DNA from: Schmidtea polychroa
Lineage: Eukaryota
Length of the DNA stretch: 64,000 bases
Direction of reading: 5' to 3'
Assembly: GCA_044892525.1 (NCBI GenBank)
Contig: CM097886.1
Span: 40,052,001-40,116,000 of the forward strand
Below the pieces are notes generated by a model, which was given only the letters and a program-made list of their open reading frames with translations, had not been told where the DNA came from and did no database searches. Positions within the stretch are counted from its first letter, which is position 1. The number at the start of each line of letters is the position of its first letter. The position numbers and the translations under genes were made by a program. Of this stretch, positions 2,990 through 64,000 are shown piece after piece.

Positions 2990-3480
2990 CTACAATCTAC
3001 AATTGGATTAGCCAGCTCAAACATGGTCGCCAGTCAGCATTGGATGATGAGAACATAGGTTGTCATTGTCAAAAAAGAGTGAAATGTCTGCAAGTTGCGA
3101 AATAAGAATACTATCACTATCAAGAGTATCTCAGTAGTTGAATGTGAGTACCGAAGGTGTGCATACCATCCTGGATAAATCTGGAATAAGAAAATTGCCA
3201 TTTTGTTTCGTTAAACGCTTTCTTTCCTCTGAAATTTATAAAAACTTGAAGGAATATTGCCTGGAAAACCTTCTGATTTTTGATGAAAATAGTGACCAAT
3301 TCATCAGAAATATCATTAATATGGATGAAACCCTTTTATCCCTGTAAATTCCTGAGACAAAACATGAGTCCATCGAACAGAAATTCTCCTGAAAACAAGT
3401 TCCAAGGAAGACAAGATCTGGAACATGTCATTGAAAATCATTGATGTTCAGAATTTTTTGAGGCCAAGGTGGCATAATCT
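2990..3480 (+). mobile_element. Degenerate mariner (DD34D-type) transposase remnant
   Basis: ORF 3138-3347 reads GVHTILDKSGIRKLPFCFVKRFLS...FIRNIINMDET, matching the mariner HTH / WVPRxL / ITGDETW region. It is followed by PETKHES (PETKxQS-like). Stops and frameshifts are present. Confidence 0.7.
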
Positions 3481-31719: not shown

Positions 31720-32848
31720 TCAAATCAAGGGATAAACTGGTACTGCCGCTATTTTGCAGGCATTTATATTCCTAGGTAGTCGGAAATATCCTTCTTCACC
31801 CCAAAATGAGCTCCAACTATTTTTAATTATCCAATATGGTGTCCCGGTGGTTTCTTCGGTCCCGTATCCGACTATCAACACAGCGTGATTAATTTTTAGT
31901 CTATCGCATTCTTTGTCGAGGAAAATGCCTTTTGTATATTTTACAAGCGATTTAGGGGCAGATAATAATGCAGAAATAGGCCCAATTGTAACTAATGCTT
32001 CTTTCATTTTTTCTTCATCATTTTCTGGAATTTGAACAAATCCAGTATCGATTGCTACTACTTTGTTCTTGACGAAATTACATTTAGGATTCATCTCTGC
32101 GGTTTTGCCGGAAACGTAAGGATAACTTTCCTCATTTTCAATTCCTCCATTTGACTTAATATATGACAATGCGTCTTGGACAAATCCACCATCGCAATTG
32201 TCATCATTTGTATCGCAATCAACAATTTGTTGTTCTGATAAGCTGATCAATTTTCCAGTCTTCCTCCAGATCTGGCCTTCCAGAGTACCAGTAATAGCAA
32301 ATGCGTAGCATGATCCACATAGTCCTTGATCTTTTACTTCAGTAACAGCACCTTTCTCTCGCCAGTCGAATGAAGCTGGAAGGTCAATATTCACACTGGA
32401 TGGTAGATATGATGAGCCTGTGATATTTGATATTTTTAATTTAGTCATTTGAGTTAGTTCTTCACTACTCTTAAAACGAAATTTGTTTTAATTTTATATT
32501 GATAATTAAACAAAATGTTACCCAATCACTCAAATGATTGATTCCAATCTCGTATGATTTTTGACCGTTTTCATAAAGATGATTGTGACGATTAATCTCG
32601 AGTAAAGACGAGATGAAATTTAAAAATCTGAAGTTCTCTTCACGCTGGGAACTATAAGATTTATTATAACGCTGTTTAAAGGTTTGAAATTCTCCATCAT
32701 AACGAGACAAGAGAAATACCGTATTTTCTAGCTCCAAAGTGCTAGGAATGCCATCATTATGAACTGATTTTTTATAGTTATAAGTAGTTCTGGCTTCCGT
32801 TATCACTATAAATAGTGCAAAGGATACGATAGGACATTTCCAAACCAT
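31720..32848 (-). CDS. CTSL: Cathepsin L-like papain (C1A) cysteine protease, 2 exons, 358 aa
   Basis: Exons 32848-32522 and 32469-31720 (52-nt GT-AG intron). Signal peptide, I29 propeptide with ERFNIN-like and GINHLSD motifs, and LPASFDWREKG. Catalytic Q..CGSCYAF, NHAVLIVGYG and IIKNSW are intact. Confidence 0.95.
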
Positions 32849-44959: not shown

Positions 44960-46112
44960 ATAGCAACCATGTCAAGGTCATATGACTCGTCCATAGCAAC
45001 GGCTGTAACTAGGTCAAGGTCATTCTATTTTAAGTAACAAGGTCGTATGACTCATCATTTTTGGAACAAAGCCAATGACTCATTATTAAAGGACATATGA
45101 CTCATCACATTTTAAACAAAGACATGTAAACAAATATTTAAATAAATACATTTAAACAAATATTTAAATAAATACATTTAAACAAATATTTAAATAAATA
45201 CATTTACAACAAAGACATTTAAACAAAGACATATAGACAAAGACTCATCGATGACTTTTTTGAACAAAGACCAATCATTTATTTTTAAGACAAAGACTAT
45301 CACACACGATTAGAACGATGACTCAGGACTCCACTAGAACAAAGTTGTTATTATCAAAATTATTATTATTATTATTTATTATTATCAATATTATTATTAT
45401 CATTATTTATTATTATTATTATTATTATTATCATTATTAATATTACCTATTATTATATATTATTATTAATATTACTTATTATTATATATTATTATTAATA
45501 TTACTTATTATTATCAATAGTATTATTATTTTCAATGTAATATTATTATTTTATTATAATTATTATTACTATTATTATTATCAAATTAATATTATTTCAA
45601 AATATTATTTCAAAGTAATTACAAAGTAATAAAAAACATTACCATTTCTGATATAATTTTCTCCATAAAAACATATTCTTCATAAAAAATTCATAATAAA
45701 ATTTCATAAAAAATTCATAAATTGATTTCATAATTTCTAAAAAACATTATAATTAAAAACATAATAATTAAAATTTACTTTTTCATCCACGAGCATTTTG
45801 AAAAAAGCATAGAGTATATGTAACGTCTATCCAATCAGAATAACGATAGGATAGAGAAATATACGCACACATACTCTATGCTTTGTTCTAAAATGATGAG
45901 TCATCAATGACTCACATAGTAACAAATAATGTCTTTGTTACTCATTGTCTTTGTTTAATTTACACGTGACATGAGTTCAACATGTCTTTATAATAATAAT
46001 ATTTTTGTGAATAATAATAAAATTAATAATAAAATTAATTAATTAATAATAATTATAATAAAATAATAATAAAAAATAGTATTACTTTGAAAAATAATAA
46101 TATTACTTTGAA

Positions 46113-46176
<64 letters not shown>

Positions 46177-46229
46177 AATAATTTAAATGCAAATCAATAT
46201 TATAAACTGGTGGGTTACTTAAAAAATCT

Positions 46230-47190
46230 TTTCAAACCTTATCATTCGAAAGGTATTTCAGAGGTATATCTAATGGTCATATCTTCGAATGGTATAACCT
46301 TCAAAGGGTCAAAAACCTTCGAATTTTTTCAAACTTTATAATATATATCATTCGAAAGGTATTTAAGAGGTCTATCTAATGGTCATATCTTCGAAGGTGT
46401 ATGGTTGGTCAATAACCTTTAAAGGGTCAAAAACCTTCAATTTTTTTAAAATCTCATAATATATATATATCAAACAAAAGGAAATTCAAAGATGAGTATG
46501 ATGGTCCAAGTTTAAAGGTCAAAGGGTCCAAGGTTCAAATTTTTCAAACCTTATAATATACATATCAAACAAAAGGTACTACAAAGGTAGTCATCGCTGA
46601 CTTTTAATAACAAAGACAATGACTCATCACTTTTTAAAACAAAGACAATGACTCATCACTTTTTAAAACAAAGACATCTGTTTTCAGAATGACGCACCCA
46701 TGGGATTTATTATTATTAATATCAAAATTATTATTATTATCAATATTATTTNNNNNNNNNNNNNNNNNNNNNNNNNNNNNNNNNNNNNNNNNNNNNNNNN
46801 NNNNNNNNNNNNNNNNNNNNNNNNNNNNNNNNNNNNNNNNNNNNNNNNNNNNNNNNNNNNNNNNNNNNNNNNNNNNNNNNNNNNNNNNNNNNNNNNNNNN
46901 NNNNNTGTCTTTGTTAATTATGCAAGTGTATTGCAAATTTATTAGTCATACCTTAATATTAATTTTACACACATACTCAATCCATTATTATTATTGCAAG
47001 TATTAGAGAAAAACCTAAAATATTTACACAGACACAAGTCTATTCGAAAGTATACATGCTAGTATTACACACCTTAAGGGTAGAAAAATATTTCTGAGTG
47101 TTTGTGTGTGCAATAGCCAAAAATAATAAATTTTATTAAATGCATGTAAATTTTTTTAAAAAATCTATGTGTGTGTTATTGGTAGAGTGT
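46230..47190 (+). repeat. Left arm of long inverted repeat (contains N gap 46752-46905)
   Basis: ATGACGCACCCATGGGATTT at 46689 is the reverse complement of AAATCCCATGGGTGCGTCAT at about 51380. The ORF track shows the same peptide on opposite strands. Confidence 0.85.
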
Positions 47191-48275
47191 GAGTGTGTAA
47201 AATATGAAATTTTATCAAATACATGTATAAATTTAGGTAAATTTTATGAAAAATCTGTTTTTTTTTGTGTGTGTGTGTTACGGTTATAGTATGTGTGCGC
47301 GTAAATATATGAAATTTTATCAAATACATGTAAATTTAGTTAAATTTTATGAAAAATCTATGTGTGTGTGTGTTACGGGTATTGTATGCGTGTGTAAAAA
47401 TATGAAATTTTATCAAAACATGTAAATTTAGTTAAATTTTATGAAAAATCTATGTTTTCTATGTGTGTGTGTTATGGGTAGAGTATGTGTGTGTAAAATT
47501 ATGAAATTTTATCAAATACATGTAAATTTCTTTAAAAAATCTATATATGTGTTTGTCCTATGGGGTAGAGAATTATTGTATATGTGTGTAAAAATTATAT
47601 CAAATTTCTTTCAAATTTATGAAAAATCTATATATGTGTGTGTTATGGGGTAGAGTATGTGTGTGTAAAAAACTTTTATCCAATACATGTAGATTTCTTT
47701 AAAAAATCTATGTGTGTGTGCTATAGTGTAAAAATATTAAATTTTATTAAATGCATGTAAATTTCTTTCAAAAATCTATGTTTTCTGTGTGTGCTATGGT
47801 TAGAGAATTATTATGGGTGTATGTGTGTACAAATAATAAATTTTATAAAAATCATGTAAATTTCTTTAAAAATCTATGTTTTCTGTGTGTGTGTGTGGTA
47901 TGGGTAATTATTATGGGTGTGTAAAATATGTAATTTTATCAAATACATGTAAATTTCTTTAAAAAATCTATGTGTGTGCTATGGTTAGAGAATTATTATA
48001 TGTGTATTTGTGTACAAATAATAAATTTTATAAAAATCATGTAAATTTCTGTAAAAAATCTATGTTTTCTGTGTGTGTGTGTGTGCTATAGGGTAGAGTA
48101 TGTGTGTGTAAAAAACTTTTATCAAATACATGTAAATTTCTTTCAAAAATCTATGTTTTCTGTGTGTGTATGTGTGTGTGCTATGGGGTAGAGAATTATT
48201 GTGTGTGTATGTGTGTAAAAATATGAAATTTTATCAAATTTCTTTAAAATTTATGAAAAATCTATGTTTTTGTGT
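47190..48275. repeat. Degenerate minisatellite, about 70-120 bp units
   Basis: Repeated gtgtgtgtaaaaatatgaaattttatcaaatacatgtaaatttctttaaaaaatctatg, about a dozen variable copies, with no unique spacers. Confidence 0.9.
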
Positions 48276-48422
48276 GAATTGTACATGTATTGCAAATGCT
48301 TATATTAACACGGGTATATATGCTTAATATGTGATTATACTTTGAGTTTATCCGACAAGATATTTTGTCCCCCTATGGGTAATGTTCACACTCAACATGT
48401 TGCAAGTGTACTGCTCACAAGG

Positions 48423-48505
<83 letters not shown>

Positions 48506-48832
48506 TTATTTTCAAAGTATTATTATAAATATTATTATTATATAAACTATTAGTTTATCCGACAACATATTTAGTCCCCGGATGGATAATGCTCATATAC
48601 AACATGTCTCAAAGGGCATATTATTAAATTCTGACTAATCAATGAAGGAGTAGAACAAAAATATATTACGTTGTGGTATGTTAAAATCTTATTTTCAAAA
48701 CATATTTTGACGCCATTTTCATTAGATGCAAGAACATTTTCATAATTATTTTCATAATTTTTGCATCGATTTCATGATTTTCAACATTTTCATCATTTGC
48801 ATGAATATATTATTTTCAAAGTTATTTTCAAT

Positions 48833-48879
<47 letters not shown>

Positions 48880-48974
48880 TCGATGAGTTTTATGTAGGGT
48901 ATCCGAATGTTGTAATAAGCAATATTTTCATTGTTTTTCATGATTATTTTCTTCAAAATTCTTATTTTATAAAG

Positions 48975-49060
48975 TATGACTCGTTCAAGGTCATATGACT
49001 CATCAAGGTCACGTGACTCATCGATTACATTTTGAGAATTCTAATTTGATTGGCTATATC
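48975..49060 (+). promoter_or_regulatory. Compact motif cluster upstream of the RING ORF
   Basis: TCAAGGTCA at 48985 and 49003, TGACTCA at 48996 and 49014, CACGTG at 49010, and reverse CCAAT (ATTGG) at about 49050. Confidence 0.55.
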
Positions 49061-49103
49061 TATTGTGATAAATGTAAAAACAAAAGTAATTTAGTTATTA
49101 CTG

Positions 49104-49755
49104 ATGATTTCTACAAGTAAAACTGTTGAATATGATTGTGTAAATCACAAAATGTATTTGGTAACTTTATTATTTTATCAATTTTTTATATATTTGTGAT
49201 TTATCTCAAGGAACTCGAAATAATGAAAAATTAAGTCCATCCTATTCTGAAGATAATCGCTCATTGAAATTTTTTAACAACACAGTTGAAGATTTTATAA
49301 ATAATCATGATGCTTACACTGATAAGAAAATCATAAATGTTTTAAAAATTTTCAAACATTCCTCTATTGAATATTTGATTGATTTATTTAATTATGATAA
49401 ATGTATTTTGAAGTTATCTAGTTATTTAATGTATTTTGAAAAAACTGTGGTAAACAACGATACACTGAATGAATACTTTTGGAGTTGCATGTATTTAAGA
49501 TTGAAACCGGGATATAGTAGATTGATTTATGAATGGATGGCGAAAGTCGATTTGATTGAAAATAAACTAACGGAAAAACTGAACGATGTTAAGAAAATGT
49601 ATTTAACTTGTTCAATTTGTAAAGAAAATCAAGTTTCGGTTTTGTTTTTACCGTGTGGTCATGTAATTGTTTGTTCTAAGTGTCACGAGAAGAATGTTCG
49701 CAATTGTCAAGCCTGTTCAACTTTGATTAATGAATATCATACTATATATATGTAA
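49104..49755 (+). CDS. BIR-less IAP/MDM2-type C3HC4 RING protein (putative E3 ligase)
   Basis: C-terminal CSICKENQVSVLFLPCGHVIVCSKCHEKNVRNCQACSTLINEYHTIYM. Frame is open from 49165 without an ATG. A plausible model is exon 49104-49116 (ATG ATT TCT ACA A), a GT-AG intron 49117-49210, then 49211-49755. The start is inferred. Confidence 0.8.
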
Positions 49756-50816
49756 TTTCTCAATACAAATTTCTAGTGTCTTTTTTAATCATGCACATTT
49801 ATTGCTCTTTTGTATATTTTTTAGTTAATTTATAAATATTATCTGACATTTTGATGTGTCAATGCAAATATATATATACAACAAATTAATCAATAAAGAT
49901 TGTAAGTTCTTTTATATACTCAGAGTTTATCCGACAAGATATTTTGTCCCCCTATGGGTATTTGTCGTAAAGGTACTGGTCGCAAGGGTAATTAGGGCAC
50001 ATGTATAGATATAAATTCTTAGGTAATTTAGTGAGAAATATTTGGGTAATATTTTAAATGTAACTTTATTCTTATTTCGAACGATTAATTTATTGATTAA
50101 CTTTGTCATTTAAAAGGTAATTTAGTAAAATATTTTCATAGGTAATTTATTCATCTAATGTTCATTACAATAGTTAACTTCGTGAGAAATACATGGTCAT
50201 TAATAACAACATTGATTCTTTGGAGTAAAAATCTTTGTTCGAGTCATAATAGAAATATGATCATCTGGTTAACCAATTAAGGTGTTTATTAGTTAGAATT
50301 CTAATTTATTATCATTGAGTGTAATATATCTTTGTGAGAATAAGTTAAGATTTTTGAGCAACATTTACCAAAACATGAATATTTTGTGCGAAGAATATTG
50401 GTTAAATATGTCATTTAAAATAATAGTTTCAGACAATAATTTATAAATTCATTGGTTAATTTATATCTTTGTGAGAAATACATGATCATTTATTGACAAT
50501 TCATTAATAAATTTGGTATAAATTCTTTATCATTTGGAGTAATTTTTGTCAAATTTCTATTTTTTATTATTATAGAAACATGATCGTTTGGTTAATTTAC
50601 ATGGAGTAATATGATGAATTTCAAGTGAAATAAAGTTTTCAGTTAATTAATATATCAAATTAATTTAAAACTGAGGATACACTAATGAAAATTCTAAACA
50701 AATATTTGCATCCACACATATATTTGAACATCACATAATAAAAACTCATTAATTTAAAATACTGCAACGTAAAATACTGCGTAATAAATGATACTGAATC
50801 GCTCTATAATAATAAT

Positions 50817-50865
<49 letters not shown>

Positions 50866-50888
50866 TTACTTTGAAAAATAATAATATG

Positions 50889-51232
50889 ACACTCTACCAA
50901 ATAACACACACATAGAATTTAAAAAAAAATTTACATGTATTGGATAAAATTTATTATTTTTGGCTATTGCACACACAATCACTCAGAAATATTTTTCTAC
51001 CCTTAAGGTGTGTAATACTAGCATGTATACTTTCGAATAGACTTGTGTGTGTAAATATTTTAGGTTTTTCTCTAATACTTGCAATAATAATAATGGATTG
51101 AGTATGTATGTAAAATTAATATCAAAGTATGACTAATAAATTTGCAATACACTTGCATAATTAACAAAGACTTTGCAATAAACGTGAATGATTAACAAAG
51201 ACATGAATATAATATTAATAATAATAATATTG

Positions 51233-51268
<36 letters not shown>

Positions 51269-51688
51269 GTAATAATAATAATAATAATAATAATATTAAT
51301 AATAATAAAAATGATAATAATACTATTGATAATAATAAATAATATTGATAATAATAATAATTTTGATATTAATAATAATAAATCCCATGGGTGCGTCATT
51401 CTGAAAACAGATGTCTTTGTTTTAAAAAGTGATGAGTCATTGTCTTTGTTATAAAAAGTCAGCGATGACTACCTTTGTAGTACCTTTTGTTTGATATGTA
51501 TATTATAAAGTTCGAAAGTTTTTGACCCTTTGAAGGTTATTGACCCACCATATACCTTCGACCCTTGGACCATCATACTCATCTTTGTATTACTTTTTGT
51601 TTGATATGTATATTATAAAGTTCGAAAGTTTTTGACCCTTTGAAGGTTATTGACCCACCATATACCTTCGACCCTTGGACCATCATAC
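50889..51688 (-). repeat. Right arm of long inverted repeat, cut at 51688 by LTR insertion
   Basis: Mirror of the left arm. Ends in a tandem subrepeat: the first copy reads ...GGACCATCATAC-TCATC, the second ...GGACCATCATAC-TGTTGGG. Confidence 0.85.
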
Positions 51689-52347
51689 TGTTGGGCTAGA
51701 ACTGATTTCTAGACCCAAAATACTAATTGTGACTGAAATGTGTAGGTACACAGCAAGTAAAAAAGCACCAAGTAGAGTTAAATATTAAAACCTACACCAA
51801 ATAAACAATATTAACTAAAGGAGAAAGCAACAAAAACATAAACAAAGAAATTAAATAAAATTATACAAAAGCAAGAAGTGATGCAAAAATCTAACTCAAA
51901 ATAACCAAATAACAACCGAGTTACAAAAAACAAACTCGAATAACTTAAAAGATAGTGAAAACAGTAAAAAAAAAAAATTCCAGAAAAACCCAGAACATTC
52001 CATAAAAATGGCAATAATCATCATAAAAGTTACCTTGAACAATAAAAGTTAGAAAAATAACTAAATTGGTAATAAAAATAAAAAATTCGTAAAAGAAATT
52101 CAGAAAAACGTCAATTAAATAAAAACGAAATTAAAAGTAATATGGAATGTTCTGGAACCGTTCCAAATCCATCATGGACGTAAAATTAATGAAAAATAAT
52201 TAAAAATTTAAACTTTAGAAATAAAAACAAAAATTATGGCACAAAAATTGCCATTAAAAATATCAAAATTGCGAAATAGAAAATTCTGGAATAAAAAGAA
52301 TTCGAGTTTGTTTTAATGCATCAATACATACACGTGTACAAAATAGG

Positions 52348-52441
52348 TATATATACCGACGCATTTTAGTCACAAGTTAATCTTTATGCCAAAAAATTTT
52401 TTTTGCTATTACCAGCACACTATTGAAATTTGAAAGTAAGG
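52348..52441 (+). promoter_or_regulatory. LTR TATA box and first splice donor
   Basis: TATATATACCGACGCATTT at 52348 and TGAAA|GTAAGG at 52436. Both are conserved in the diverged LTR copy at 34411 and 34501. Confidence 0.6.
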
Positions 52442-53846
52442 AATGTTTTTGTTATTTATGCATTGTATTTTATGTATTTATTAAACATTTTCTATATATG
52501 ATTTATTAAAGTATTTATTATGCGATAACCTTAATAGGACTCTATTAAATGAATCCCCTTTGAAATTTTTTGTTAATTTTTTTTGAGGGATCAACATCGA
52601 TCGAACTTATCATCGATTTTGATCCGTCTCACATACTAAATGGGTATCAATATTTACAACGTCATTGTGCACGCAGCCTTGACGTAAGCAGGCCACTGCC
52701 TGGCATGCACCTCAATATTATAGTGGTGGGATCGTCGGAGGTCGTACCGACTCAGTGGTATACGCCGCTGGGTTCGTCGATGAATCACCTCCGGACGGTG
52801 GAGTTCGCGGAACTCGTTATCGGTATTATAATACACGGTAGTATATTACCGCTTACATTCACAATAAGGGCTCGTCGTAGGGAGCACAGTGAGGCCCCGA
52901 AAGCAGGCAATATTTCTGTAAATTGACTTTTCACACGCATAATGTACATATAATCTATACATTAAAAATCAACAGCGATACACTACCCTAAGGATAATAA
53001 ATGGAGTAGAGCTCCGGACTCAAATTAACCACAATACACCAAATATGTAGTTGGCTAAACATTTTTCGAGTTAGATTTATGAATTACTACCGACCATAAG
53101 AGTATTGATTAGGAAAGTAAAAAATTCTGCCCTTAAATTAGTATCCCCGACTATCCACCTATTGATAAAAATATAAATCGTAATCTATAATTTGAAATAA
53201 ATTATAAAATTATGCTGAATTGATTTTTCATAAGATTGCACTTTCTAAAAGCTGATAATAGAGTATAAACCTATAATTTGATGTGAACTTATAAGTTATA
53301 TGAGTTATAAATTCGATATAGATTTTAAATTGTAAATCATAAATTGTAAATTATATATGAATTGTATAAATTACCAGTTATATACTTATGAATTATATAT
53401 AACAAAAAACCCTGCCATTAAATATATATATTATATAAATTGGAAATGATATACTTATGTATTATATAGTAAAGAACCCTACCATTGTATATATAAACGA
53501 TAAACTTACACTAACCGGTCTTTTAGAAAATATAAATTAATAAACATATGAAATTTTTTTTTTAAATTACGATCCTGTGTCGATCCCCAAAATTTAGTGC
53601 TAATTGTACTACTTATCTACATCAACTAATGGATATATTGAAATTATATACCTTATTTGCAAAACTTATGGATCTTCCCCGATTGCTACTAAGTATATTA
53701 CTATGTATATACTTCTTAATTATGATGCTCACCAATCGGTGCAATCATCCTACCTGTCATGTTTGAGAAACTTATTAACCATTAATGAATGCATTACTGT
53801 ATGTATTACTTGTAAAATACTATATTATTAATATATTACTAACATG

Positions 53847-54230
53847 TACTACTTATAAAATTACAAATCATAATAAAAATTTCGGATCGATACTACTCGA
53901 ATATGTTACTTATAAAAGTGCAAATTATAATTTATACTTCATATTGATATTATTATAATATACTACTTATAAAATTACGAAGCATAATAAAATTTTAGAT
54001 CAATACTACCCGAATATGTTACTTATAAAAGTGCAAATTATAATTTATGCTTTATATTAATATTATTATAATATACTACTTATAAAATTTCAAACCATAG
54101 TACAAATTTTGGGTCAATACTACTCGAATAGGTTACTTATAAGAGTACAAGTTATAATTTATACCTCATGCTACTTACAAACTTGCCGATCATAATTTAT
54201 GTCAATACTACTCGTATATATGACTGATGA
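53847..54230. repeat. About 114-bp tandem repeat (about 3.5 copies) inside the LTR
   Basis: tactacttataaaatt...caatactac.cgaata.gttacttataa starts at 53847, 53961 and 54074. Confidence 0.85.
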
Positions 54231-56042
54231 ACTTAAACTTATGATGTATACTTTATATTACTACTACTAATATATATTACTTACCCTCGGGAATTACTTG
54301 AATGTATTATCTATCAGTTATAGAACCTACTACTCATTAATAAGGATATTAATCATGTACACATTGTTTTTAAATTATATAGTTTATCTACGAAATCCAT
54401 CATCGTACATATAATTTTAACTTATGAATTGTAATGTTATAAATTACCCCTCCCTTATTATGATTTATATTCGATTAGTTAACATTACTTATGTCATAGA
54501 TACCCTCTAAATTAACCCTATAATGCCCCATACTTGAATGTTTGGATTAATCCTACTATAGCATAAAATTTATGAATATGCTACTCGTCTAAAAATTGTG
54601 TAACCCCTATAAGTTATTAATATACTATTTACACTCGTATTACATCATAAATATATTGTTTGCACATATACTACTTATAAATTGGAAAACCCCATAAATA
54701 GCAATTAAGAAATACTACCTGTAAATCAGGGATAATTGGATGCATAACCTACTCGATGCACATACTACTCCCTAGTAAATATATGGAAATCGTAAGAAAG
54801 AAATTTTACACCATAAAATTTATTAAAACTAAATAAAATTGTAATAAACGAACCTGGCTCAGTAATTGATAAATACACCAGAAAATTTATTGAAACTAAA
54901 TAACCCGATGTTATTTACATAATAGAGTCAGAATGCAAGGCCAATACTTTAATAAGTCGATCACTAATACCACAAAGACGCCACGATGATAATTATGCCA
55001 GACAGTTCTATTGCATACTCCAAAAGTCGCCGACTTTGAATTGTCTAACGTCTGGTTGTATGGTTCTTGCCCTGGCCGACTCATTGAATGTGATTCGCGA
55101 GAAGTTGTTGATAGCGGAACAACAGAAGAATTTGCCGACTAGATTTCTCGACACCCGAAAAGATGTGTCTACAGAGTGAACAACAGGACGTCAGTGAGCA
55201 AATTAGACATGAATATCGATTCACCATCGAAAAGCTGTTGACAGATTGTACTTCCCTTGAATTGCGAAACGTATATCTGCTTGTCTTGAGTCATGAATTG
55301 TTCCCACAACGTCGGGGCACGTTCAGTAGGTCCGAGCATGCTTCCAAAGATTTGAAGTTAAGATGATTTGCCAGGGGGGCGTTGCTGGTTTAGATCCATC
55401 GTGCTAGACTTGCCAGGAATGTAAAGCAGGGTGAATACTGGAATTGAAATAAAAATCACAGGCTATCAAACAATGAATAATAAAATCCATACCTAAGAAA
55501 TCGATCTCCACATTTGAAAATTCTTCATCACGATTGTGTAATTTAAAATGACTCCCTTCATCCCTCACCGACTTAAACAAGACTGCGTTGTCAAGGTCGG
55601 GAAAAATTTCGAAATTAATAATTAATTTTTGTGGTTATTTAAGATTACTTTTGGCAACGATAGAATTGGTGTAGTTAAATTGTCTAAACTTATAATTTTT
55701 TTTTGTTTCATATTTTTTTTTAAACTAAAGAATATTCTGAAAATGCTTTATTTGGTTTCAACGTCCTTTCCTCATTCAGCAAATTAGTAAATGTAATTCA
55801 AATGACGTTAACCCAACACAAATGGGATAAAAATTTTATCTTCTTAATATGGTTAATGATTTAAAAGTTATTTCCCTTTTATAGTGCATAGTTCTATTGT
55901 TCAATTGCAATTCCGTTAGGGTTTGCACTATAGGAAAATGACCCAGTAGGTTTAAGAGCTAAAGATTATTTAATGGACAAAAGGGCGTGGTTAAAAAGCC
56001 GATCACCGGAATTAGAAAGATAATTATCCATAACCATTTAGA

Positions 56043-56414
56043 ATGTCAAACTCCAGAGAATCAAGTGAAGTGGAACAATGTGAAACAACGGATGAGCGCC
56101 TCCTATCCAGGCACATCTGGCACCACATACACCGGTGGAGCCAGGGTCGAGATCTAGACTGCTCAAACCGAGTGATTCGAGCAGGCCCCGAGGCGGACGC
56201 ACCGGTATGGGTAAAGACCGAGCCGGACAATAATTGGCTCGTCGAGGCCAGAGATCGCACCATGGATGCCATCGCTCTAGCTCAACGCGAACTCCGCCTG
56301 ATCGAGGCTCGACTCCGTGCCGTCGAAACCGGTCAGCCGTTAGAAGAAGTGGACGTGGGGCCGACACCGGCGAGGAAACGGGGCCGACCCCGCAAGAATG
56401 CTTCCCGAAACTGA
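56043..56414 (+). CDS. LTR-encoded 123-aa protein with C-terminal AT-hook
   Basis: ATG-initiated and GC-rich relative to the flanks. RKRGRPRK at 56373-56396 follows a short amphipathic helix (LAQRELRLIEARLRAVE); AATAAA downstream at about 56486. Confidence 0.6.
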   Translation: MSNSRESSEVEQCETTDERLLSRHIWHHIHRWSQGRDLDCSNRVIRAGPEADAPVWVKTEPDNNWLVEARDRTMDAIALAQRELRLIEARLRAVETGQPLEEVDVGPTPARKRGRPRKNASRN

Positions 56415-56681
56415 GACTTCAGTGATCTTGGGGACGATCTCACATTTTATTTTGATTTTAGTGATTCGTCACAATCTTGGTTTAATAAACGTATTGTTTT
56501 TTTTCTTGATTCGATGTGTCGTTCTAAGCGTTGTTACTTTAATAAATTGCATTATATAATAATCGAGACGTTATCATCCTGACCATCCACCCGACGGAAA
56601 TTTATATACACATAGGGGCACCCGAGTTTCGATTATTAGAGACCGGCAATTTTGAGGAGATAAAATTACGGTAAAAATCGG

Positions 56682-57176
56682 TTGATTGTATATTTTACTT
56701 CAGTGTACAAACTGTTCGAGGGACTCCGGAAGGACAGGGAGCAGGCGCAGCAGCAAGTAGAGCGGCTGCAACTTAGCGTCAATCAGTTCAAAGAGCGCTG
56801 TCGGAGGATGGAACAGAGTTGGATCCGCCCTGAGGTGGCCCATAAGTACTTGAGGCAGATCGAACAACTACAGCTCCAGAGCACTCAAGACAAAACCGAG
56901 ATACGGGCCCTAAAGTTACAGATGCGGGCCATGGAGACAAAATTGAACCAACGGGCCATCGATGAGCACGTCACGGCAGCGATCCGGCCCATGGCTATAG
57001 AACTGGCCGAAATGCACCCACCCAAACCCAAGGCCAAGCGAAAACGGTTAGGCCGAGATGGTCGGGATCGACTCAAACGGCTACGGCTAGCCGAACAAAA
57101 ACTAGAAGAAGAGGCAAGGAAGTCAGCGCTACTTGACGGTTCATGTGCAGGACCGATGGATGTAAATAAAGTGTAA
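56682..57176 (+). CDS. LTR-encoded coiled-coil protein with basic NLS-like segment (probably a spliced exon)
   Basis: 164-codon GC-rich frame with heptad-like E/Q/L/R runs and PKPKAKRKRLGR. Acceptor TTTTACTTCAG at 56693-56703; first in-frame ATG at 56808; AATAAA overlaps the 3' end. Confidence 0.6.
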   Translation: MIVYFTSVYKLFEGLRKDREQAQQQVERLQLSVNQFKERCRRMEQSWIRPEVAHKYLRQIEQLQLQSTQDKTEIRALKLQMRAMETKLNQRAIDEHVTAAIRPMAIELAEMHPPKPKAKRKRLGRDGRDRLKRLRLAEQKLEEEARKSALLDGSCAGPMDVNKV

Positions 57177-57497
57177 ATAGTTGAAGTTGAATTTCTGTAT
57201 GCCGAATGATGAAGATGAGTGATATGTGCGTGGTGTTTTTGGGAAAACTATAGAGGTAGGGGACCAATGAAATCGGACACAAATCTTCTAACGATAGTCC
57301 GTGGACCCAAGGAGTGCTTGACAATTATAGTGCAAGTGGTGCACTCACTTTTTGCGAACACTCCCCCAGTTGACACAGTACCAACGGTGATCGTTCATCG
57401 GGTGTCAATTGGCAAAATCAAGCTTGTATTCTGGGTTACGCTGGAAACAGCACGAAAGAGTGAAATGTCTAACCACCTGTAACCCACCATACAAATT

Positions 57498-57515
57498 TGG
57501 GGGCTCAGCCGGGAT
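57498..57515 (+). other. Primer-binding site complementary to the tRNA-Pro 3' end
   Basis: TGGGGGCTCAGCCGGGAT is 16 of 18 identical to the classical tRNA-Pro PBS TGGGGGCTCGTCCGGGAT and lies just after a CA dinucleotide. Confidence 0.9.
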
Positions 57516-58162
57516 TGTTGAAAATCTTTTTGGTGAAAGAACCGTGAAAATATATTATTGGGAAGCACAAAAATTGATATAACAAGTGAGAAGTCTATTG
57601 TTTTCCCAAATACATAAATCTTATATATAGATATTAGTATGATGAAAATGAATGTTGAATTGTGGGTGATGAATGAAAGTTTTGTTGTAAATATAAGAAG
57701 ATAACGAAATTAAGTACTGGAGTATTGTATGAATAACTGAAATCGAAATAGCGATAAATAAAAAATAAAAACAAAAATACAAAAATTGCAAACATCAACG
57801 ATTGGAAAATGTAAATAAATGAAATAGTAAAATTTAAATAGGAAAAAAGGGGGGACAAGCACGCGAACAAATTGGAAATAAATGAACAAATGTAATCGAA
57901 CTTAATCGAGAAACGCGAGAAAAATGGGATAAACGGGATATGGATTATATATAATAAAATGAATATAATAAATAACTAAAATCATGGACAAGAGCTTCGC
58001 GCAGAAAGACAAATCAAGGGAAACAGGCGCGGATAAGGATGATATTTTCTGAATAGAATTCAAAAATAAATTACTTAAAACTGAAAGGGATAATAGGGGA
58101 ACTAATAAATGGGGAAAATAATGAGGGTTTTAACAAATTTTAAATTAACAAATTGTAATTAG

Positions 58163-58645
58163 ATGGAATTAACCGGCTACATTGTAAAGAAACTTGAGAA
58201 CTTCGTTAATCTGACAAACAATTCGCTACAACGATTAAATCGAAAAGCAGACCAGTTACTAAAAATCCACGACGAACTGAGCTTGAAACCAAGACCACAA
58301 GCTGAGGAAGTATGCGTAATGATGAGAATAGCAACACCCAACGCGGAACTGAGTACTAAAAGAGTTTATCAAATCCAAAATTTACGATTGGATAATGCCA
58401 AGTTTAACATCAAATGGCAGGAGATAATGATAAAAATGGAAACGATTGAAGAGGAAATTAGAGAAGCAATTGAACGCCAAGTTAAAGACTTCAGAAAATG
58501 CTTTATATGTAGAATCAACGAAATACGGGTAATGATGATACCCTGTGGTCATTTATGTTACTGCGAAGGGTGCGCAGAAAAAGTAAAACGATGTAATGCA
58601 TGTGATACAAACGTTAGAGAAAGAGTTGTAATATACCTCCCATAA
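58163..58645 (+). CDS. Retroelement-encoded coiled-coil plus IAP/MDM2-type C3HC4 RING protein (160 aa, no BIR)
   Basis: Intact ATG-to-TAA, intronless. CFICRINEIRVMMIPCGHLCYCEGCAEKVKRCNACDTNVRERVVIYLP; AATAAA at about 58704. Confidence 0.88.
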   Translation: MELTGYIVKKLENFVNLTNNSLQRLNRKADQLLKIHDELSLKPRPQAEEVCVMMRIATPNAELSTKRVYQIQNLRLDNAKFNIKWQEIMIKMETIEEEIREAIERQVKDFRKCFICRINEIRVMMIPCGHLCYCEGCAEKVKRCNACDTNVRERVVIYLP

Positions 58646-59389
58646 GGAGATGTGGTCGAATAAATGATAAAGAAGTGAATTGTAAATGAGTACGAATGAT
58701 AAAATAAATATTAAATTATATTAAAATCCATTATAGCAACCGAAAGGTATAAAACATACGATGAACATAGACATATAAAGGACACAAAAGACGTTAAATA
58801 AATAGACAAGCAACACAGCATTTAGAACAACAAAAATCAAAATTGGATGTGAGACGGATCATAGTCGTATAGATGGGCTGATCTATAAGATCAATACGAT
58901 TTCCATTTCCAAAATTTTTCCTTTTCTTCCTTGTTATTATTTTTGGCATAGAGATACGATAATGAGGGGATGACAAGTGAACCGTCCTTACGACACTTGC
59001 CCGGATGGGGAAATCCTGATCACTCCGATGAGAGAATGTAGTAGGATCCATCGCAAATGTTGGGGAGTTTCTGTCGAGTGACTGATCACCACTTGTGGGA
59101 GAGGAACCAACGCGATTATTATATTTTTTTGTCTGGGAGACGGGGATTGACTAAAAGGGTAAATAAAAATAGAAAAACAAAATAAAAATTGAAAAATGCG
59201 CGCTAAAACGTTAAAAATTTAATCCGAGAGCAGCTGCGGATTTGAAGAAACCGTTTTTGGACTTCAAATCGAATGAAGAGTATTGATTTTTCCCTAGCGA
59301 GTGATGAGGCACCCGAGTACAGCGGCTAACCACCGGACTGTAGTGTCCAGGAGATTATCAGCCAAGGGACTGATGATGCTGGATCACCC

Positions 59390-60410
59390 AATACAAAAAC
59401 CCGGATACCACACCGAGTATTGGGCGCACTTCTTTGAGATGCTAGCGGGACTTGATACAAAAACCCGGAATGGTAATGGGCGAGAGAGACCTAGTTACCC
59501 ACACCGAGTATTAAGGAGCCCAGTGAAACGGTTGTGAGATGCGAGTCAGCCGGTAAAGGACTCGTACTCAATAGGCAACCAAGATTGGACCAGTTGTGAG
59601 GCGGAGGACCAAAAGTCAACTGCATATCCAATTTCCTTTTATCTTCACTAGTCGGGAGATCTGGTCCATCACTTTTGAGAATCAAGATCAAGGCGATTAG
59701 GTATTTCCGTGTTTTTTAAATCCTCACAAATAGGATGTTTTTTCTTCGTGATTATTGCTAGCAGGGGTCGGTACAAAACCCGGATGCCCACACCGAGTAC
59801 CGATAGGCCCAGTGAAACGGCGATGAGACTAGAGTTACCGGTATTAGACTCTTTTCAATAAGCGGCCAAGAATTGAGCCAGTTGTGAGGCCTCAGCAGAT
59901 TAGGAATCTGAGTAGGAGGAGCCTTAAATTTTTAATTAGTCCGAAAGCCAACTGTCAACTCAATTTAATCGCGGTAGGGACGATAGTAGGTGTAAAAACC
60001 GAAGGCGTCGAGGGGTTGAAGAAACCTCATTTAGGGCATTTGAAACCGGTCAGGGACCGAAGACCGCGAATATGGCGTAATGGTGTAAAAGCCCAGGCGT
60101 CGAGGAGTCATAAAAGACTTCAGATTATGATTAAACCGGCCGGAAGCCGATGCCGACGTGGAGGTCTAACAAACCAAAGCGTTGATGGGTAATAATGGAT
60201 TATATGGCGTAACGGTGTAAAAGCCCAGGCGTCGAGGAGTTGTAAAAGACTTCATGAGATTAAAATGAGTTGATTAAACCGGCCAGGGAGCCGATGGTAA
60301 TTGAGTAAAATGATTTAAATGAAATAGGAGATTGAACCGGTCAGGGAGTCGATGGTAAATAAATGTAGATGCAGAGGTCACGCGAACCAAAGCATCGATG
60401 ATTAAATATG
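59390..60410 (+). repeat. Two families of GC-richer direct repeats in the retroelement leader
   Basis: Family A: CACACCGAGTA...GCCCAGTGAAACGG...CCAGTTGTGAGGC at about 59500-59630 and 59790-59960. Family B: GGTGTAAAAGCCCAGGCGTCGAGGAG...AAACCGGCCAGGGAGCCGATG, 3-4 copies at about 59985-60410. Confidence 0.8.
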
Positions 60411-61002
60411 AAATTGAATGAATCGAAATAGATTAAGTGCGTTAAATATATAATGAGTAAAGGAAAATTATGATAAAGCGCCGGCGCAAGTGAAAATGAA
60501 ACCAGTTTTTGGAGGGGAAAAGCGAACGAATAGATATTAGTTGAGTTACTGAATTTATTTATTAATGATATGTTTACTTTGATATTTTTATAATTGATAT
60601 TATATTTATTTGATGATTATAAAAGGGATAGATAATTGATGCGACTATATAGATAATTGATATGAGTTATAGATAATTTAAAATCGACTTAAAATCAAAT
60701 GGGATGAATGACGAGAAGTGTAGGAAAGCTAGAAAATTAGGAGCCAAGGAACAGTAAAATAAAGGGAAAATGGAAAGTAAATGAAGGGTTAATAAAGAGA
60801 ATTTATGATATGTACTAGAAGTGTTAATTATTTTAGAATAAAGAAAACAATTCAGAAAGAAATCAAAGAAATCAAGAAAACAATAGAAATCAAGCGAGAT
60901 AGAGAAAGCAATCAAAAGCGAAGAATCAAGGAAATCAATAAAACCAAATCCAAGAGGAATTAGAGAATTGTAAAGATTAAAGAAAAGTGAAATAATAATT
61001 AA

Positions 61003-64000
61003 AAACATCAGAGCTCGATCAACGAAGTAGAAAATTTATCAATATTGAAAAGAGGAAAAATTGAGAGTATAGCTAGCCGAACGAGACAAAAAAGTAAAGG
61101 AAACCTCAGTTTATTAGAAAAAGAGGAGATACAAAGAGCCAAGAAAAACAGAAAACTATACAAGAAACCGGAATCGGTGGAAACAGTATTTGAATCAGAA
61201 AGTTTAACTAACGAATTTGAGAACAGCGACGATCCTAAACGAACCGAATTAGATCCAATAAGCGACGTCGAATCAACTGACGAAGAGGAAAATATATCCG
61301 AGACAACAGAGATAACCGTACTGTGCCAAGAGATAATGTCGGACGGAAACCTAAATGAACCAGGGGTATTTAGAGATAAATTTCGAGGAGAGCCATTCGA
61401 TGGAAATATAAACCAGTTGGAAACGTTTATAAAAGAATTCGAAGTATATATTACGATATGCCGCTGGCCAGATCTGACCGTACGAGAACGAATACCCCTA
61501 TATCTAAAGGGAATCGCCCAAGATGTATATTTGGAGACGAAATGCGATGCAACAAAATTGAGAACGTGGAAAGAGATCAAAGAGTTTCTAATAAAAACAT
61601 TCGGTACCGAAAAGGAAGGAAATCGGAAAATGTTAGACTTTCTACATCGAAAGCAGAAATATAGTGAATCCAATGCACTGTACGCATGTGAATTGAGACG
61701 ACTAGCAAGAGAAGCCTTCGATTCAAATCAACCAGTTCCGGAAGACAAGATAATAGCCGTATTCATAGATGGTATGAAACGGGAGGATATACGAGCAACC
61801 TTGGGATGTCGAGCACCAGAGACGCTGGAAGAAGCACTAAAAATAGCTAACAAGTGTGAAACCTACTTAACACCAATACAAGTAGCAGCAATGACAGCAG
61901 CTCCAGCAGCTCCAGCAGCAACAGCAACAACCACAAACAATCAAATCAATAATGAAAATCCAGTAATGAATCAATTCATCCCAGGATCGCAACAGTTGTT
62001 CAAAGCTCCACAAACAAGAAACCAAGACAATGGAGGTAATGTTCAAAGTTTTACTAATAATTTCAGGAACAACGACATTAACAATCGAACGTGCAACATA
62101 TGCCAACGACCAGGGCATTGGAGCAATGAATGTTATAGAGCAAGGATGTGTCAAAAGTGTGGGAGAAGAGGCCACACGGAAAATGTCTGCAGAGGACCCA
62201 TGATGTCTATGGGCAGAGGAGGAAGCAGAACCTGCTACAATTGCAATCAACCTGGACACATGGCAAGAGAATGTACGATGAGAACCAAACCAAATCAACC
62301 AGGATCAAACAATCCAAGTCAGAACACACAAATTAACCTCATGCAGGAAATCGAACAATTAAAAGATATGATCCAGCGAATACCGACTAATAACCAACAA
62401 CAACGAATCAACATGATGCAGAGCAACGAGGAAATCCGGAAGCAACCAAGTAAGCAACAACAAGATCAACAACGGATCGAATGGCAAAGATTACAAAACG
62501 AGGAAGCCAGAGAAATTCAAGAAAGATGGAAACAACGGGAAGCGAATCCCGGAAGAATAAATATGATGAGATTAACAAATAAAGAGGAATCGCACACTGC
62601 GGAGCAGTGTGTTAACAACGACGGGAGTGAACCGATAATAAACAAGGAGATAAAAACGACAAAAGAAAATGAGATTGATCCACAGACAGAATTGAGCAGT
62701 GAAGAGAAAATACAATTGATTAAAGAATTTACCAAAGAGGAGAAAGAAAGGAGACAAAAGAGAGATGAGAGTAAAGACGAACCAAAAAGCAATGAGATAG
62801 TTACAAAAAATCGAATTCAGAGGGTACTACTACAAAAAATCGAAGACAGAATCAAAAACGAAAACCCTACATTAACTAAGGAACAAATTAAAGAAAAAGT
62901 GAAAGAGCATTGGTTCAGGAAAAATGAGTGGTTCGAAAAGAAAGAACCACATACCAAAGCTAAAATAAACATGTTGAGACAAATGCGGAGTGATCAGACG
63001 GATCAAGAAGATGAGAAAAGTGAGGTGAGTAGCCTGGGAGGCGAATTATTTCAGTCAAGCGAGGAAAATAACGAACCAAAGACACCTCCAAACAGTGAAA
63101 CACCTCAAAGTAGTGATGAGAGTGAAAATGATGACATGAAATCAATGATAGAAAAAGATGATGAGGAGATATTTGAGAAAATTTTCGACACAGTAACAGA
63201 AATAGAGCGGAATGAGAGCTACATCAACGAGCTAACATATAGAAAATGCGTAAAACTTATAACTCAAGTATACCAGTGTGAAGGAGGTATAATAACGGCA
63301 GCATGGAAAGATTTAGCAACAAAATATAAAGAGAAACTAAAGGAAGCAGGCCCAGATCAATATCAGGTAAGTATTCAACACCCCGAGATTCAGATACAGA
63401 CTATTGAATTAAAAGGAACAAATACCGATGAACTGTACAACTGGGTACAGGAAAAAATGGGAACGAGCCATAAAAATAAACAATTATATGTCGATGGTTA
63501 CAAAGTTAAAATGGGCATACATTTGGTAGATGCGATGATATGGCCAAACGAAACTAACATCTTAACCTTAGAGAAAACCGGAGATGACGAATCGGTAGCA
63601 GAAATGTTCAAGAAAATTCAACAAGTATTTAACAATGAAGTGGAACCGGAATTGGAAAAGATCGAACGAAAAATAATGAAAGAAAATCAAATAATCTTAG
63701 TCAAGCAAGCTATCGATCAGGCAAGGAAATACATTAATAGACTGAGAGAAAGATGGCCACAACTAATGAAACAATTTGTCAAAGACGTACGAGACACGGA
63801 AATTATGAGATTCGAAGATGAACGAGCGACAGAATTGATATCCAAATACGGAGAATACGAGAGAACCAAACGCGAACAAGAAACGATAAAAATAAAGGTG
63901 AAGTTGCCAAATGAAGAGAAACAAATAATAGAAGTTAATCCCGATTGCCAAGTTGACGAGTTAGTGCAAATCATAGATCAAGAAATCATCCAAAAAGCTC
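61003..64000 (+). CDS. gag: Gag polyprotein, open to the window end (about 999 codons): Ty3/Gypsy capsid, 3 CCHC zinc knuckles, long acidic/coiled extension, two ubiquitin-like domains
   Basis: Absent from the ORF track because it has no stop in the window. I translated frame 61003 onward without stops; first ATG at 61336. Capsid FDGNINQLETFIKEFE...LYLKGIAQDVY...TWKEIKEFLIKTF...PETLEEALKIA. Knuckles CNICQRPGHWSNEC, CQKCGRRGHTENVC, CYNCNQPGHMAREC (62092-62274). Confidence 0.9.

Follow-up and report, generated by a model that had tools for sequence, protein, structure and literature searches.

Evidence for a young but broken giant Ty3/gypsy element of the Burro type, carrying an envelope gene, in the genome of a planarian

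Introduction

The closest described systems are the Burro elements. In the passages of a review that concern them (PMC6431247), Burro is >30 kb in total with an internal region of ~25 kb, and its polyprotein is given as 4,873 aa and as a range of about 4,900-5,100 aa. Burro RNA levels go up upon PIWI knock-down (PMC8532177). The same passages describe Ogre of dicot plants, which has very long LTRs (1.9-6.5 kb), extra ORFs and the Ty3/gypsy pol order, with a total of 16-25 kb and an internal region of 11-13 kb. Platyhelminthes errantiviruses with a GAG-ENV-POL order and an HSV/gB-type env have also been reported (PMC13524379). In the parts of that report consulted, the table gives no LTR coordinates and lists the tRNA as 'none' in all six S. 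mediterranea entries; the search reached just 3 kb beyond the ORFs, and LTR pairs separated by >14 kb were left out. A planarian TRAF/MATH expansion of 99 transcripts and 121 domains has been reported separately (PMC6109357).

In this study, we analysed a window of 64,000 nucleotides from Schmidtea polychroa (GCA_044892525.1, contig CM097886.1, positions 40,052,001 to 40,116,000, forward strand). The element that begins at window position 51689 is very probably a Burro-type giant Ty3/gypsy retroelement that carries an envelope gene, was inserted recently and is now defective. This kind of element is largely already known as Burro from the passages of PMC6431247, and the assignment compares its anatomy with that published description. 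The element resembles Ogre in its very long LTRs, extra ORFs and pol order; unlike Ogre, for which those passages describe no env or apoptosis-related cargo, it carries both and is larger. Unlike the PMC13524379 table entries, it has defined LTRs and a tRNA-Pro primer.

Results

Boundaries and target site

As shown in Table 1, the element has the paired TG...CA LTRs, TSD and tRNA PBS behind the 5' LTR of an LTR retrotransposon. A preliminary description of the window had placed the LTR start at the TG at 51689 and its length at about 5.8 kb, and comparison of the LTRs bore out both. Its LTR end, a CA at 57493, was rejected, since LTR position 5801 is the last base in paired copies, in solo LTRs and in the 3' LTR alike; the true end lies 4 bases earlier. 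The 3' LTR that it predicted was found downstream, near-identical to the 5' LTR, and so was the predicted junction: ATAC lies on both sides, and past the 3' LTR it is followed by TCATCTTTG and the remainder of the inverted arm of the host repeat. The few substitutions between the LTRs agree with the proposed young age. The copy itself is not intact: stop codons separate env from protease, the reading frame changes at RT/RNase H, and a hAT sits in the 3' LTR.

Table 1. Features of the element at 51689 and of its insertion site (window positions unless a contig is named)
Feature	Position	Strand	Evidence or remark
Foldback-like host repeat into which the element inserted, inverted left arm	44965..47190	.	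complementarity of 93-97% with 50889-51527 and with the flank past the 3' LTR
Right arm of the host repeat, first part; its end is a 110-bp tandem unit that the insertion splits	50889..51688	.	arm resumes past the 3' LTR
TSD ATAC	51685..51688	+	second copy at L004:760-763, directly after the 3' LTR
5' LTR, TGTTGGG...CCCACCA, 5,801 bp	51689..57489	+	99.7% identity to the 3' LTR, 15 substitutions
113-bp tandem array within the LTR	53826..54169	+	nested hAT occupies its 3' LTR counterpart
Putative LTR ORF A, 123 aa from ATG, ending in AT-hook-like RKRGRPRK	56043..56414	+	dN/dS 0.24-0.25
Putative LTR ORF B, 170 codons stop to stop, coiled-coil-like, basic tail	56664..57176	+	dN/dS 0.13-0.15
Spacer between LTR end and PBS, 8 bases	57490..57497	+	same length in 24/24 pattern matches and 13/13 family-1 loci
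PBS for tRNA-Pro(TGG), 18 nt	57498..57515	+	18/18 bases complementary to host tRNA-Pro(TGG) plus added CCA
RING-finger accessory ORF, 160 aa, in the leader	58163..58645	+	Pfam zf-C3HC4_3, E 2.9e-11
Polyprotein frame, first part; earliest ATG at 61336	61003..64000	+	open 4.6 kb past the window: MATH, Bcl-2-like stretch, env
Gag capsid domain	61393..61866	+	Pfam Ty3_capsid E 4.3e-07, Retrotrans_gag E 9e-07
Three CCHC zinc knuckles	62083..62277	+	Pfam zf-CCHC (2 stretches) and zf-CCHC_3; three CX2CX4HX4C motifs in the translation
3' LTR, split by a 3.1-kb hAT	G000:C2:40134772-40143759	.	partner of the 5' LTR, 31 kb further on

Size and copies in the genome

The element measures 36,884 bp without the nested hAT (25,282 bp internal) and 40,071 bp with it, in line with the earlier estimate of well over 20 kb. 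Full spans from six of ten paired loci were 36.3-37.7 kb in five cases and 29.1 kb in one, and a readable 4-bp TSD was present at five of the ten. Of the 28 junctions that could be paired among 33 examined, 18 gave an internal length of 24.7-25.8 kb. A class of 10-11 kb without env or pol is present alongside the full-length copies. Reversed-pattern controls gave 0 matches, against 24, 375, 1,058 and 530 for the real patterns.

Since relatives span 36-38 kb, giant size is a family trait and not a result of nesting. An artefact of nested insertions, which the preliminary description had itself raised as a possible refutation, would fit the hAT inside the 3' LTR, the position of the copy inside a foldback-like repeat and the interrupted LTRs of some copies. 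However, LTR positions 1-5801 were matched in one piece by six other genomic copies (95-98% identity), 6/9 candidate solo LTRs had their own 4-bp TSD, internal lengths cluster at ~25 kb, and the TRAF gene recurs in 90/90 scored matches. We count nesting as already refuted by the full-length solo LTRs with TSDs, which makes this explanation of the size extremely improbable. A composite LTR starting at 55057 was rejected because of the full-length LTR copies and the same solo LTRs.

Gene content

The element carries gag (three knuckles), MATH, an env of the fusion type that lies between gag and protease, PR-RT-RH-IN, ankyrins, TRAF and IAP. Pfam matches across the element were zf-CCHC, MATH, Monjiviricetes_fusion, protease, RVT_1, RNase H, integrase, ankyrin, TRAF, BIR and RING. 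The pol order of protease, RT, RNase H and integrase is that of Ty3/gypsy (Metaviridae), and the named matches of an RT similarity search were all Ty3/gypsy types or uninformative. The published description of Burro combines a total of >30 kb and an internal region of up to 25 kb with a retrotrans_gag motif, two or three CCHC knuckles, and MATH/TRAF, BIR, RING and ankyrin cargo; the size, gag and Pfam-detected cargo found here agree with it. The passages of PMC6431247 likewise give Burro a three-knuckle gag, MATH, an env that is in frame with gag before it and protease after it, PR-RT-RH-IN, ankyrin, BIR, RING and coiled coils. The polyprotein span at 51689 is ~4,770 codons, against 4,873 aa for Burro. 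Unlike Burro as described in those passages, BIR+RING and a full TRAF are separate ORFs downstream of the polyprotein here, and the copy at 51689 is broken.

The 3.5-kb region taken earlier for a leader does precede the long frame, but it holds the RING-finger ORF, a homologue of which lies behind 23 of 30 PBS loci. The long frame had been described as an A-rich, T-poor Gag frame of at least 999 codons. It is indeed open for 999 codons in the window (43.9% A, 17.9% T), but only the first ~430 residues are Gag; in all, the frame at 61003 encodes a 2,542-aa gag-cargo-env polyprotein. There are at least 90 intronless TRAF copies in the genome, and each full copy carries two MATH domains.

Other cargo gave fainter signals. 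All 21 PDB matches of the Bcl-2-like stretch before env were to Bcl-xL, but the best E value was 0.74; the stretch had no Pfam match, and its low-confidence single-sequence model (pLDDT 47.5) had no match in a fold search. Ubiquitin-like and dUTPase-like domains of Burro were detected in the literature by HHpred. Here, one of three candidate ubiquitin/SUMO-like segments had weak ubiquitin-fold matches (E 0.006-0.09), and a dUTPase-like domain gave no match at E up to 1. A protease-site motif matched 7 times, against a shuffle mean of 0.66 (max 5 in 1,000); this excess is weak because the pattern was written after seeing the sequence.

Envelope and breaks around pol

The polyprotein span of the copy at 51689 is in three pieces, with two breaks around pol. 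The env/PR junction is closed in this copy and was in-frame and open in 19/19 other copies, and the RT/RH stretch was open in 16/19. These counts led us to reject the idea that the family has a programmed stop or frameshift at env/PR or at RT/RH. Assembly errors might account for both breaks. Over a 5.7-kb stretch, which is part of the polyprotein length, 5/20 loci were open.

The env matched Monjiviricetes_fusion (PF24664, E 9.8e-70), has a C-terminal hydrophobic segment and, by eye, is about two-thirds identical to that of Smed_errantivirus_6, closer than to numbers 1-5 in the parts of PMC13524379 consulted; the GAG-ENV-POL order is also alike. The match to a viral fusion glycoprotein family, its frame shared with the protease in the other copies, and two further predicted membrane proteins encoded by the element would fit an infectious endogenous planarian virus that spreads between cells via its fusion protein, instead of a purely intracellular retrotransposon. 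A provirus hypothesis is raised in the passages of PMC6431247. However, the 10-11 kb class spreads without env or pol. We consider the viral reading possible, though somewhat less probable than a purely intracellular Burro-type retroelement.

Priming sites

The proposed tRNA-Pro PBS at 57498 held, with full pairing to the host tRNA, and its sequence has 1,058 exact matches in the genome. The gap between LTR and PBS is 7-8 bases in the two families compared. A polypurine tract before the 3' LTR was absent: the longest purine run in the last 30 nt was 3 in the copy at 51689, and no run >5 occurred in the 30 nt before the LTR at any of 30 loci (longest 3-5, two families). A conserved hairpin and GGGCCCC precede the 3' LTR in 30/30 loci of the two families, a count that says nothing on every copy because these loci were picked by the hairpin pattern itself. 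The second family has 71% PR-RT identity. An inverted repeat extending beyond TG...CA, suggested by family 1, was dropped because family 2 does not support it.

A polypurine tract before the 3' LTR is a usual feature of LTR retrotransposons and, to our knowledge, is regarded as near-universal. Yeast Ty1 is known to have short, pyrimidine-containing plus-strand primers and degenerate tracts, which may make the lack of a tract here less unusual than it seems. We found no literature report of gypsy elements without a polypurine tract, and the matches listed in a wider search of the plus-strand priming literature included nothing on Burro-type elements. The family transposes regardless of the missing tract. 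Plus-strand priming could be ordinary, with a short degenerate GAG/GGAG stretch as the polypurine tract and the hairpin serving packaging, dimerisation or another role. Such a run lies 5-7 bases before the LTR in both families, and the Ty1 tracts offer a precedent; against this, it has only 3-5 purines, pyrimidine-rich bases separate it from the LTR, and the long LTR-PBS spacer makes the other end atypical as well. We give ordinary priming an even chance.

Frames within the LTR

The LTRs appear to encode two small proteins, ORFs A and B, which the substitution pattern suggests are under purifying selection (dN/dS 0.25 and 0.13). Third positions held 24/36 differences in ORF A and 28/45 in ORF B. 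ORF A stays open, with 52-60% identity, in LTRs that cannot be aligned as DNA; its Pfam AT_hook match (E 0.012) fails the cut-off. Other subfamilies carry ORF B homologues at 37-52% identity, and the second Burro family has a distant one; ORF B was open in 11/11 family-1 PBS loci where found (13 examined). The other frames of at least 70 aa (13 of 15) were discarded, having no protein-level match in divergent LTRs or being antisense or overlapping shadows of A and B. Contigs of three presumed-RNA runs and one run of unspecified kind cover parts of the region. The 15 joints listed, of 52, are all in the latter, so no expression or splicing is inferred from them.

Conservation of A and B might instead reflect constrained RNA or DNA signals, or captured sequence carried passively. 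Homologues of ORF A numbered 0 among 1.84 billion representatives and those of ORF B 0 among 311 candidates (lengths 86-275 only), Atlas look-ups gave weak or unnamed leads only, and neither ORF had a homologue outside the S. polychroa genome in these searches. The phrase 'ORF within the LTR' was not found among the literature matches listed. ORF B lacks an early ATG; by eye, an acceptor-like sequence ends at 56703 and a simple A-to-B splice is out of phase. The antisense mirror frame has a similarly low dN/dS (0.19), but it contains stops; among the low-ratio LTR frames only the sense frame has none. The third-position excess, the frames that stay open where synonymous sites are saturated and DNA no longer aligns, and the open ORF B loci also argue for proteins. 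We therefore consider non-genic conservation unlikely and favour two LTR-encoded proteins.

Discussion

By standard LTR biology, transcription from the 5' LTR would give an RNA of ~31 kb. The element's own protease would cut a single large polyprotein (gag, cargo, env, PR, RT, RH, IN, ankyrin tail), tRNA-Pro would prime the minus strand, and integrase would insert the DNA with a 4-bp duplication. Judging from the cargo, the TRAF, IAP, RING, MATH and Bcl-2-like modules may blunt host death and innate signalling during replication. The selection on A and B suggests that the LTR encodes two small basic proteins, which most likely act in the nucleus to regulate expression of the element itself. 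The least certain steps are that the plus strand would be primed, without a polypurine tract, at the conserved hairpin/GGGCCCC just before the 3' LTR, and that unintegrated DNA would carry 7-8 extra bases past the terminal CA, to be trimmed.

The LTR frames, absent polypurine tract, 7-8 base spacer and pol-less class are unmentioned in the passages of PMC6431247, its figure aside. Relative to that text, the LTR frames, priming anatomy, TRAF copies and pol-less class are new, and some may already be in print. Taken jointly, it is a tentative and rather doubtful proposal that Burro replicates in this non-standard way (hairpin/GGGCCCC priming, trimmed extensions), that LTR-borne regulator genes let hundreds of solo LTRs seed small nuclear proteins, and that element TRAF/MATH genes make up much of the planarian TRAF expansion.

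As a giant element, the copy at 51689 is only one more member of a described group, and the added anatomy matters more. Because each full copy has two MATH domains and the genome so many intronless TRAF copies, Burro-type elements may, judging from copy counts, inflate the TRAF/MATH expansion reported in PMC6109357. A young, abundant family without a polypurine tract offers a direct test of how plus-strand priming can work in elements near the largest size that reverse transcription can handle. Genes under selection inside the LTR, if true, would make each solo LTR a potential coding unit.

Ends, insertion site and primer of the element

A genome search with 51689-57500 as the query identified a 3' LTR partner at C2:40134772-40143759, in two pieces with 99.7% identity. 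In the same search, LTR positions 1-5801 were matched without a break in at least six further copies (95-98% identity); copy counts are lower bounds, being based on 40 scored candidates out of 6,262. The partner LTR terminated in CCCACCA, followed by ATAC and TCATCTTTG. These results indicate that the LTR occupies 51689-57489 and that the target-site duplication (TSD) is 4 bp. The LTR length of about 5.8 kb given in the preliminary description was therefore retained, and its end was moved from 57493 to 57489. The ATAC predicted to follow a 3' LTR was observed, and the interrupted host repeat resumed beyond it as a mirror of 44965-46586. Among nine solo-LTR candidates, six had their own 4-bp TSD, one was the 3' LTR of an element, and two were truncated.

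The tRNA-Pro primer-binding site (PBS) proposed at 57498 was also found, since 57498-57515 is complementary to the last 15 bases of a host tRNA-Pro(TGG) gene plus CCA. The earlier observation was confirmed, and its interpretation was supported. On G000:C1, a very large array of tandem tRNA-Pro(TGG) genes with a 475-bp period starts at ~130.90 Mb (L007-L009), and the 3' half of this tRNA, the element's primer, has 2,164 exact genomic matches. The host repeat is foldback-like, ~8.4 kb, with long inverted arms (window 44965-51688 and L004:764-2403); it carries a RING ORF (49165-49755) with 42% identity over the RING to that in the element's leader.

Size and copy number

From end to end the element measures 40,071 bp; subtracting a 3.1-kb hAT transposon in the 3' LTR leaves 36,884 bp. 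The nested hAT (L003:4036-7141) has an open 886-aa transposase and one recognisable end only; its other junction repeats ~84 bp of a 113-bp LTR array. Ten paired loci were fetched. Six gave full spans (36.3, 36.3, 36.5, 36.6, 37.7, and 29.1 kb) with LTRs of 5.3-6.4 kb, and the remaining four were interrupted, truncated, a segmental duplicate or unpaired. Of 33 3'-LTR junctions located in the first 76 Mb of C1, 28 were paired with a PBS, at 24.7-25.8 kb (18 pairs), 9.6-11.3 kb (eight) or intermediate lengths (two). Genome-wide, the 3' junction had 375 exact matches and the PBS 1,058, other families included in the latter. The tRNA-Pro-primed LTR ends were of at least four kinds (L071-L100), and the RING homologue was absent behind the PBS at 7 of these 30 loci. 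At G000:C2:109143634-109167964, four LTR-end/PBS junctions lie ~6-12 kb apart with the same strand orientation and may mark pieces of the element arranged in tandem.

A 10-11 kb class makes up eight of the 28 paired elements. Three of its copies (C1 19.49, 43.93, and 72.12 Mb; L101-L106) carry the RING ORF and gag, which runs on into the ankyrin/membrane tail, without env or pol, and long open frames were present in two of them. They look like a non-autonomous family mobilised by full copies.

Coding content and relationship to Burro

Features of the element (window G000:C2:40052001-40116000; positions >64000 are window equivalents, contig position minus 40,052,000)
Feature	Position	Strand
RING ORF	58163-58645	+
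Polyprotein frame, 2,542 aa; first part with capsid, three CCHC knuckles, low-complexity and weakly ubiquitin-like segments	61003-68631	+
MATH domain of this frame	residues 1176-1320	+
After MATH in this frame: Bcl-2-like stretch, fusion glycoprotein (matches PF24664), membrane segment		
Protease and RT ORF	68884-70638	+
RNase H, integrase, ankyrins, acidic linker, membrane segment	70350-75320	+
152-aa ORF	after 75320	+
487-aa ORF, TRAF zinc fingers and MATH	after 152-aa ORF	+
392-aa ORF, BIR and RING, IAP-like	after 487-aa ORF	+
533-aa and 269-aa ORFs, coiled-coil-like	after 392-aa ORF	+
341-aa ORF, hydrophobic start and membrane segment	last listed	+

Burro is described as having a total length of >30 kb, an internal region of up to 25 kb, and an ORF1 of 4,873 aa with gag, three knuckles, MATH, Ubi/SUMO-like and BCL2-like domains, env between gag and pol, dUTPase-like, PR-RT-RH-IN, ankyrin, and BIR (PMC6431247). 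The testable major features are present here, and the element is a new Burro-type copy of an already described group; from this kind of element, the host was taken as a planarian. For three further domains the searches gave weak matches or none: the Bcl-2-like stretch matched Bcl-xL at a best E of 0.74, one of three candidate segments had ubiquitin-fold hits at E 0.006-0.09, and dUTPase gave no hit at E up to 1. Six S. mediterranea GAG-ENV-POL elements with a gB-type env, listed without LTR or tRNA annotation, include one (number 6) that is nearest to our element as judged by eye (PMC13524379). A metagenome protein, P0019, combines env, protease and RT in a single polypeptide, and its RT is 64% identical to that of the element.

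All 90 scored matches to the TRAF gene were intronless and full length, and 80 had no internal stop. The polyprotein tail (L005:5917-7030) and the last ORF (L006:6390-7415) each encode a predicted membrane protein that belongs to no known family; the two could be partners of env. The window also holds unrelated ORFs: an Egalitarian winged-helix domain (17533-18486), a hAT-like DUF4371 fragment (21821-22966), and a papain-family cysteine protease (31720-32487).

State and age of the copy

Env continued in frame into protease in all 19 other copies, and the RT/RNase H stretch was open in 16 of them; tested as a whole, the 5.7 kb were open in 5 of 20 loci. In the window copy, stops separate env from protease and the frame changes at RT/RNase H, so that this copy cannot make the full polyprotein. 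Its LTR pair differs at 15 sites (K 0.0026), which corresponds to ~130,000 generations if the S. mediterranea rate given in PMC13309565 (1e-8 per site per generation) is carried over to this host. LTR pairs of six other elements gave K 0.0004-0.0016. The family is young, and the window copy is the oldest of the seven dated. The young age proposed previously was borne out; the element itself is not intact.

Putative genes within the LTR

Despite 94-97% identity in pol, subfamilies (L042-L061) have wholly different LTR interiors, and their LTR DNA is alike only in 700 bases at the start and 230 at the end. This suggests exchange of LTR modules. Two putative ORFs inside the LTR, A (56043-56414) and B (56664-57176), were kept as protein across subfamilies, with 52-60% and 37-51% identity, respectively, and mostly no stops. 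Against the nearer subfamily, A had a dN/dS of 0.25 and B one of 0.13; synonymous sites were saturated against the far ones. Third positions accounted for 24 of 36 differences in A and 28 of 45 in B, and in a six-frame test a low ratio and no stop coincided only in the sense frame. B was present and open in 11 of 13 PBS loci of this family (family 1); the other two were short-class copies.

A second Burro family in this genome (family 2) has 71% identical PR-RT, a 4.2-kb LTR, a span of 30.6-30.8 kb, and a 4-bp TSD. Its LTR holds a 253-aa frame that aligned to five of five B variants with scores of 26.6-35.4 bits. The highest score among 200 shuffles was lower each time (19-26 bits), in a test weakened by coiled-coil composition. 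The AT-hook-like motif at the end of A and the basic tail of B suggest that the putative products may be nuclear regulators.

Priming signals

The usual LTR-PBS spacer is 0-3 bases. It was 8 bases in 24 of 24 family 1 cases. In family 2, with the LTR end set from matches to 3' and solo LTRs, it measured 7 bases. A purine tract before the 3' LTR was absent in the window copy, 12 of 12 further family 1 loci, and both family 2 elements examined. Its place is taken in both families by a predicted hairpin (7-bp stem, variable 3-base loop) and GGGCCCC directly after it. This pattern had 530 genomic matches against none for the control, and the LTR started 9 or 11 bases after it in 30 of 30 loci. Because the search pattern fixed the stem, compensatory changes could not be observed, and the hairpin is predicted rather than proven. 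A degenerate short purine tract could equally well serve as the plus-strand primer.

The putative LTR genes, priming signals and TRAF cargo were not found in the literature consulted, and the original Burro description may show some of them. It is on these three features that the interest of the element centres.
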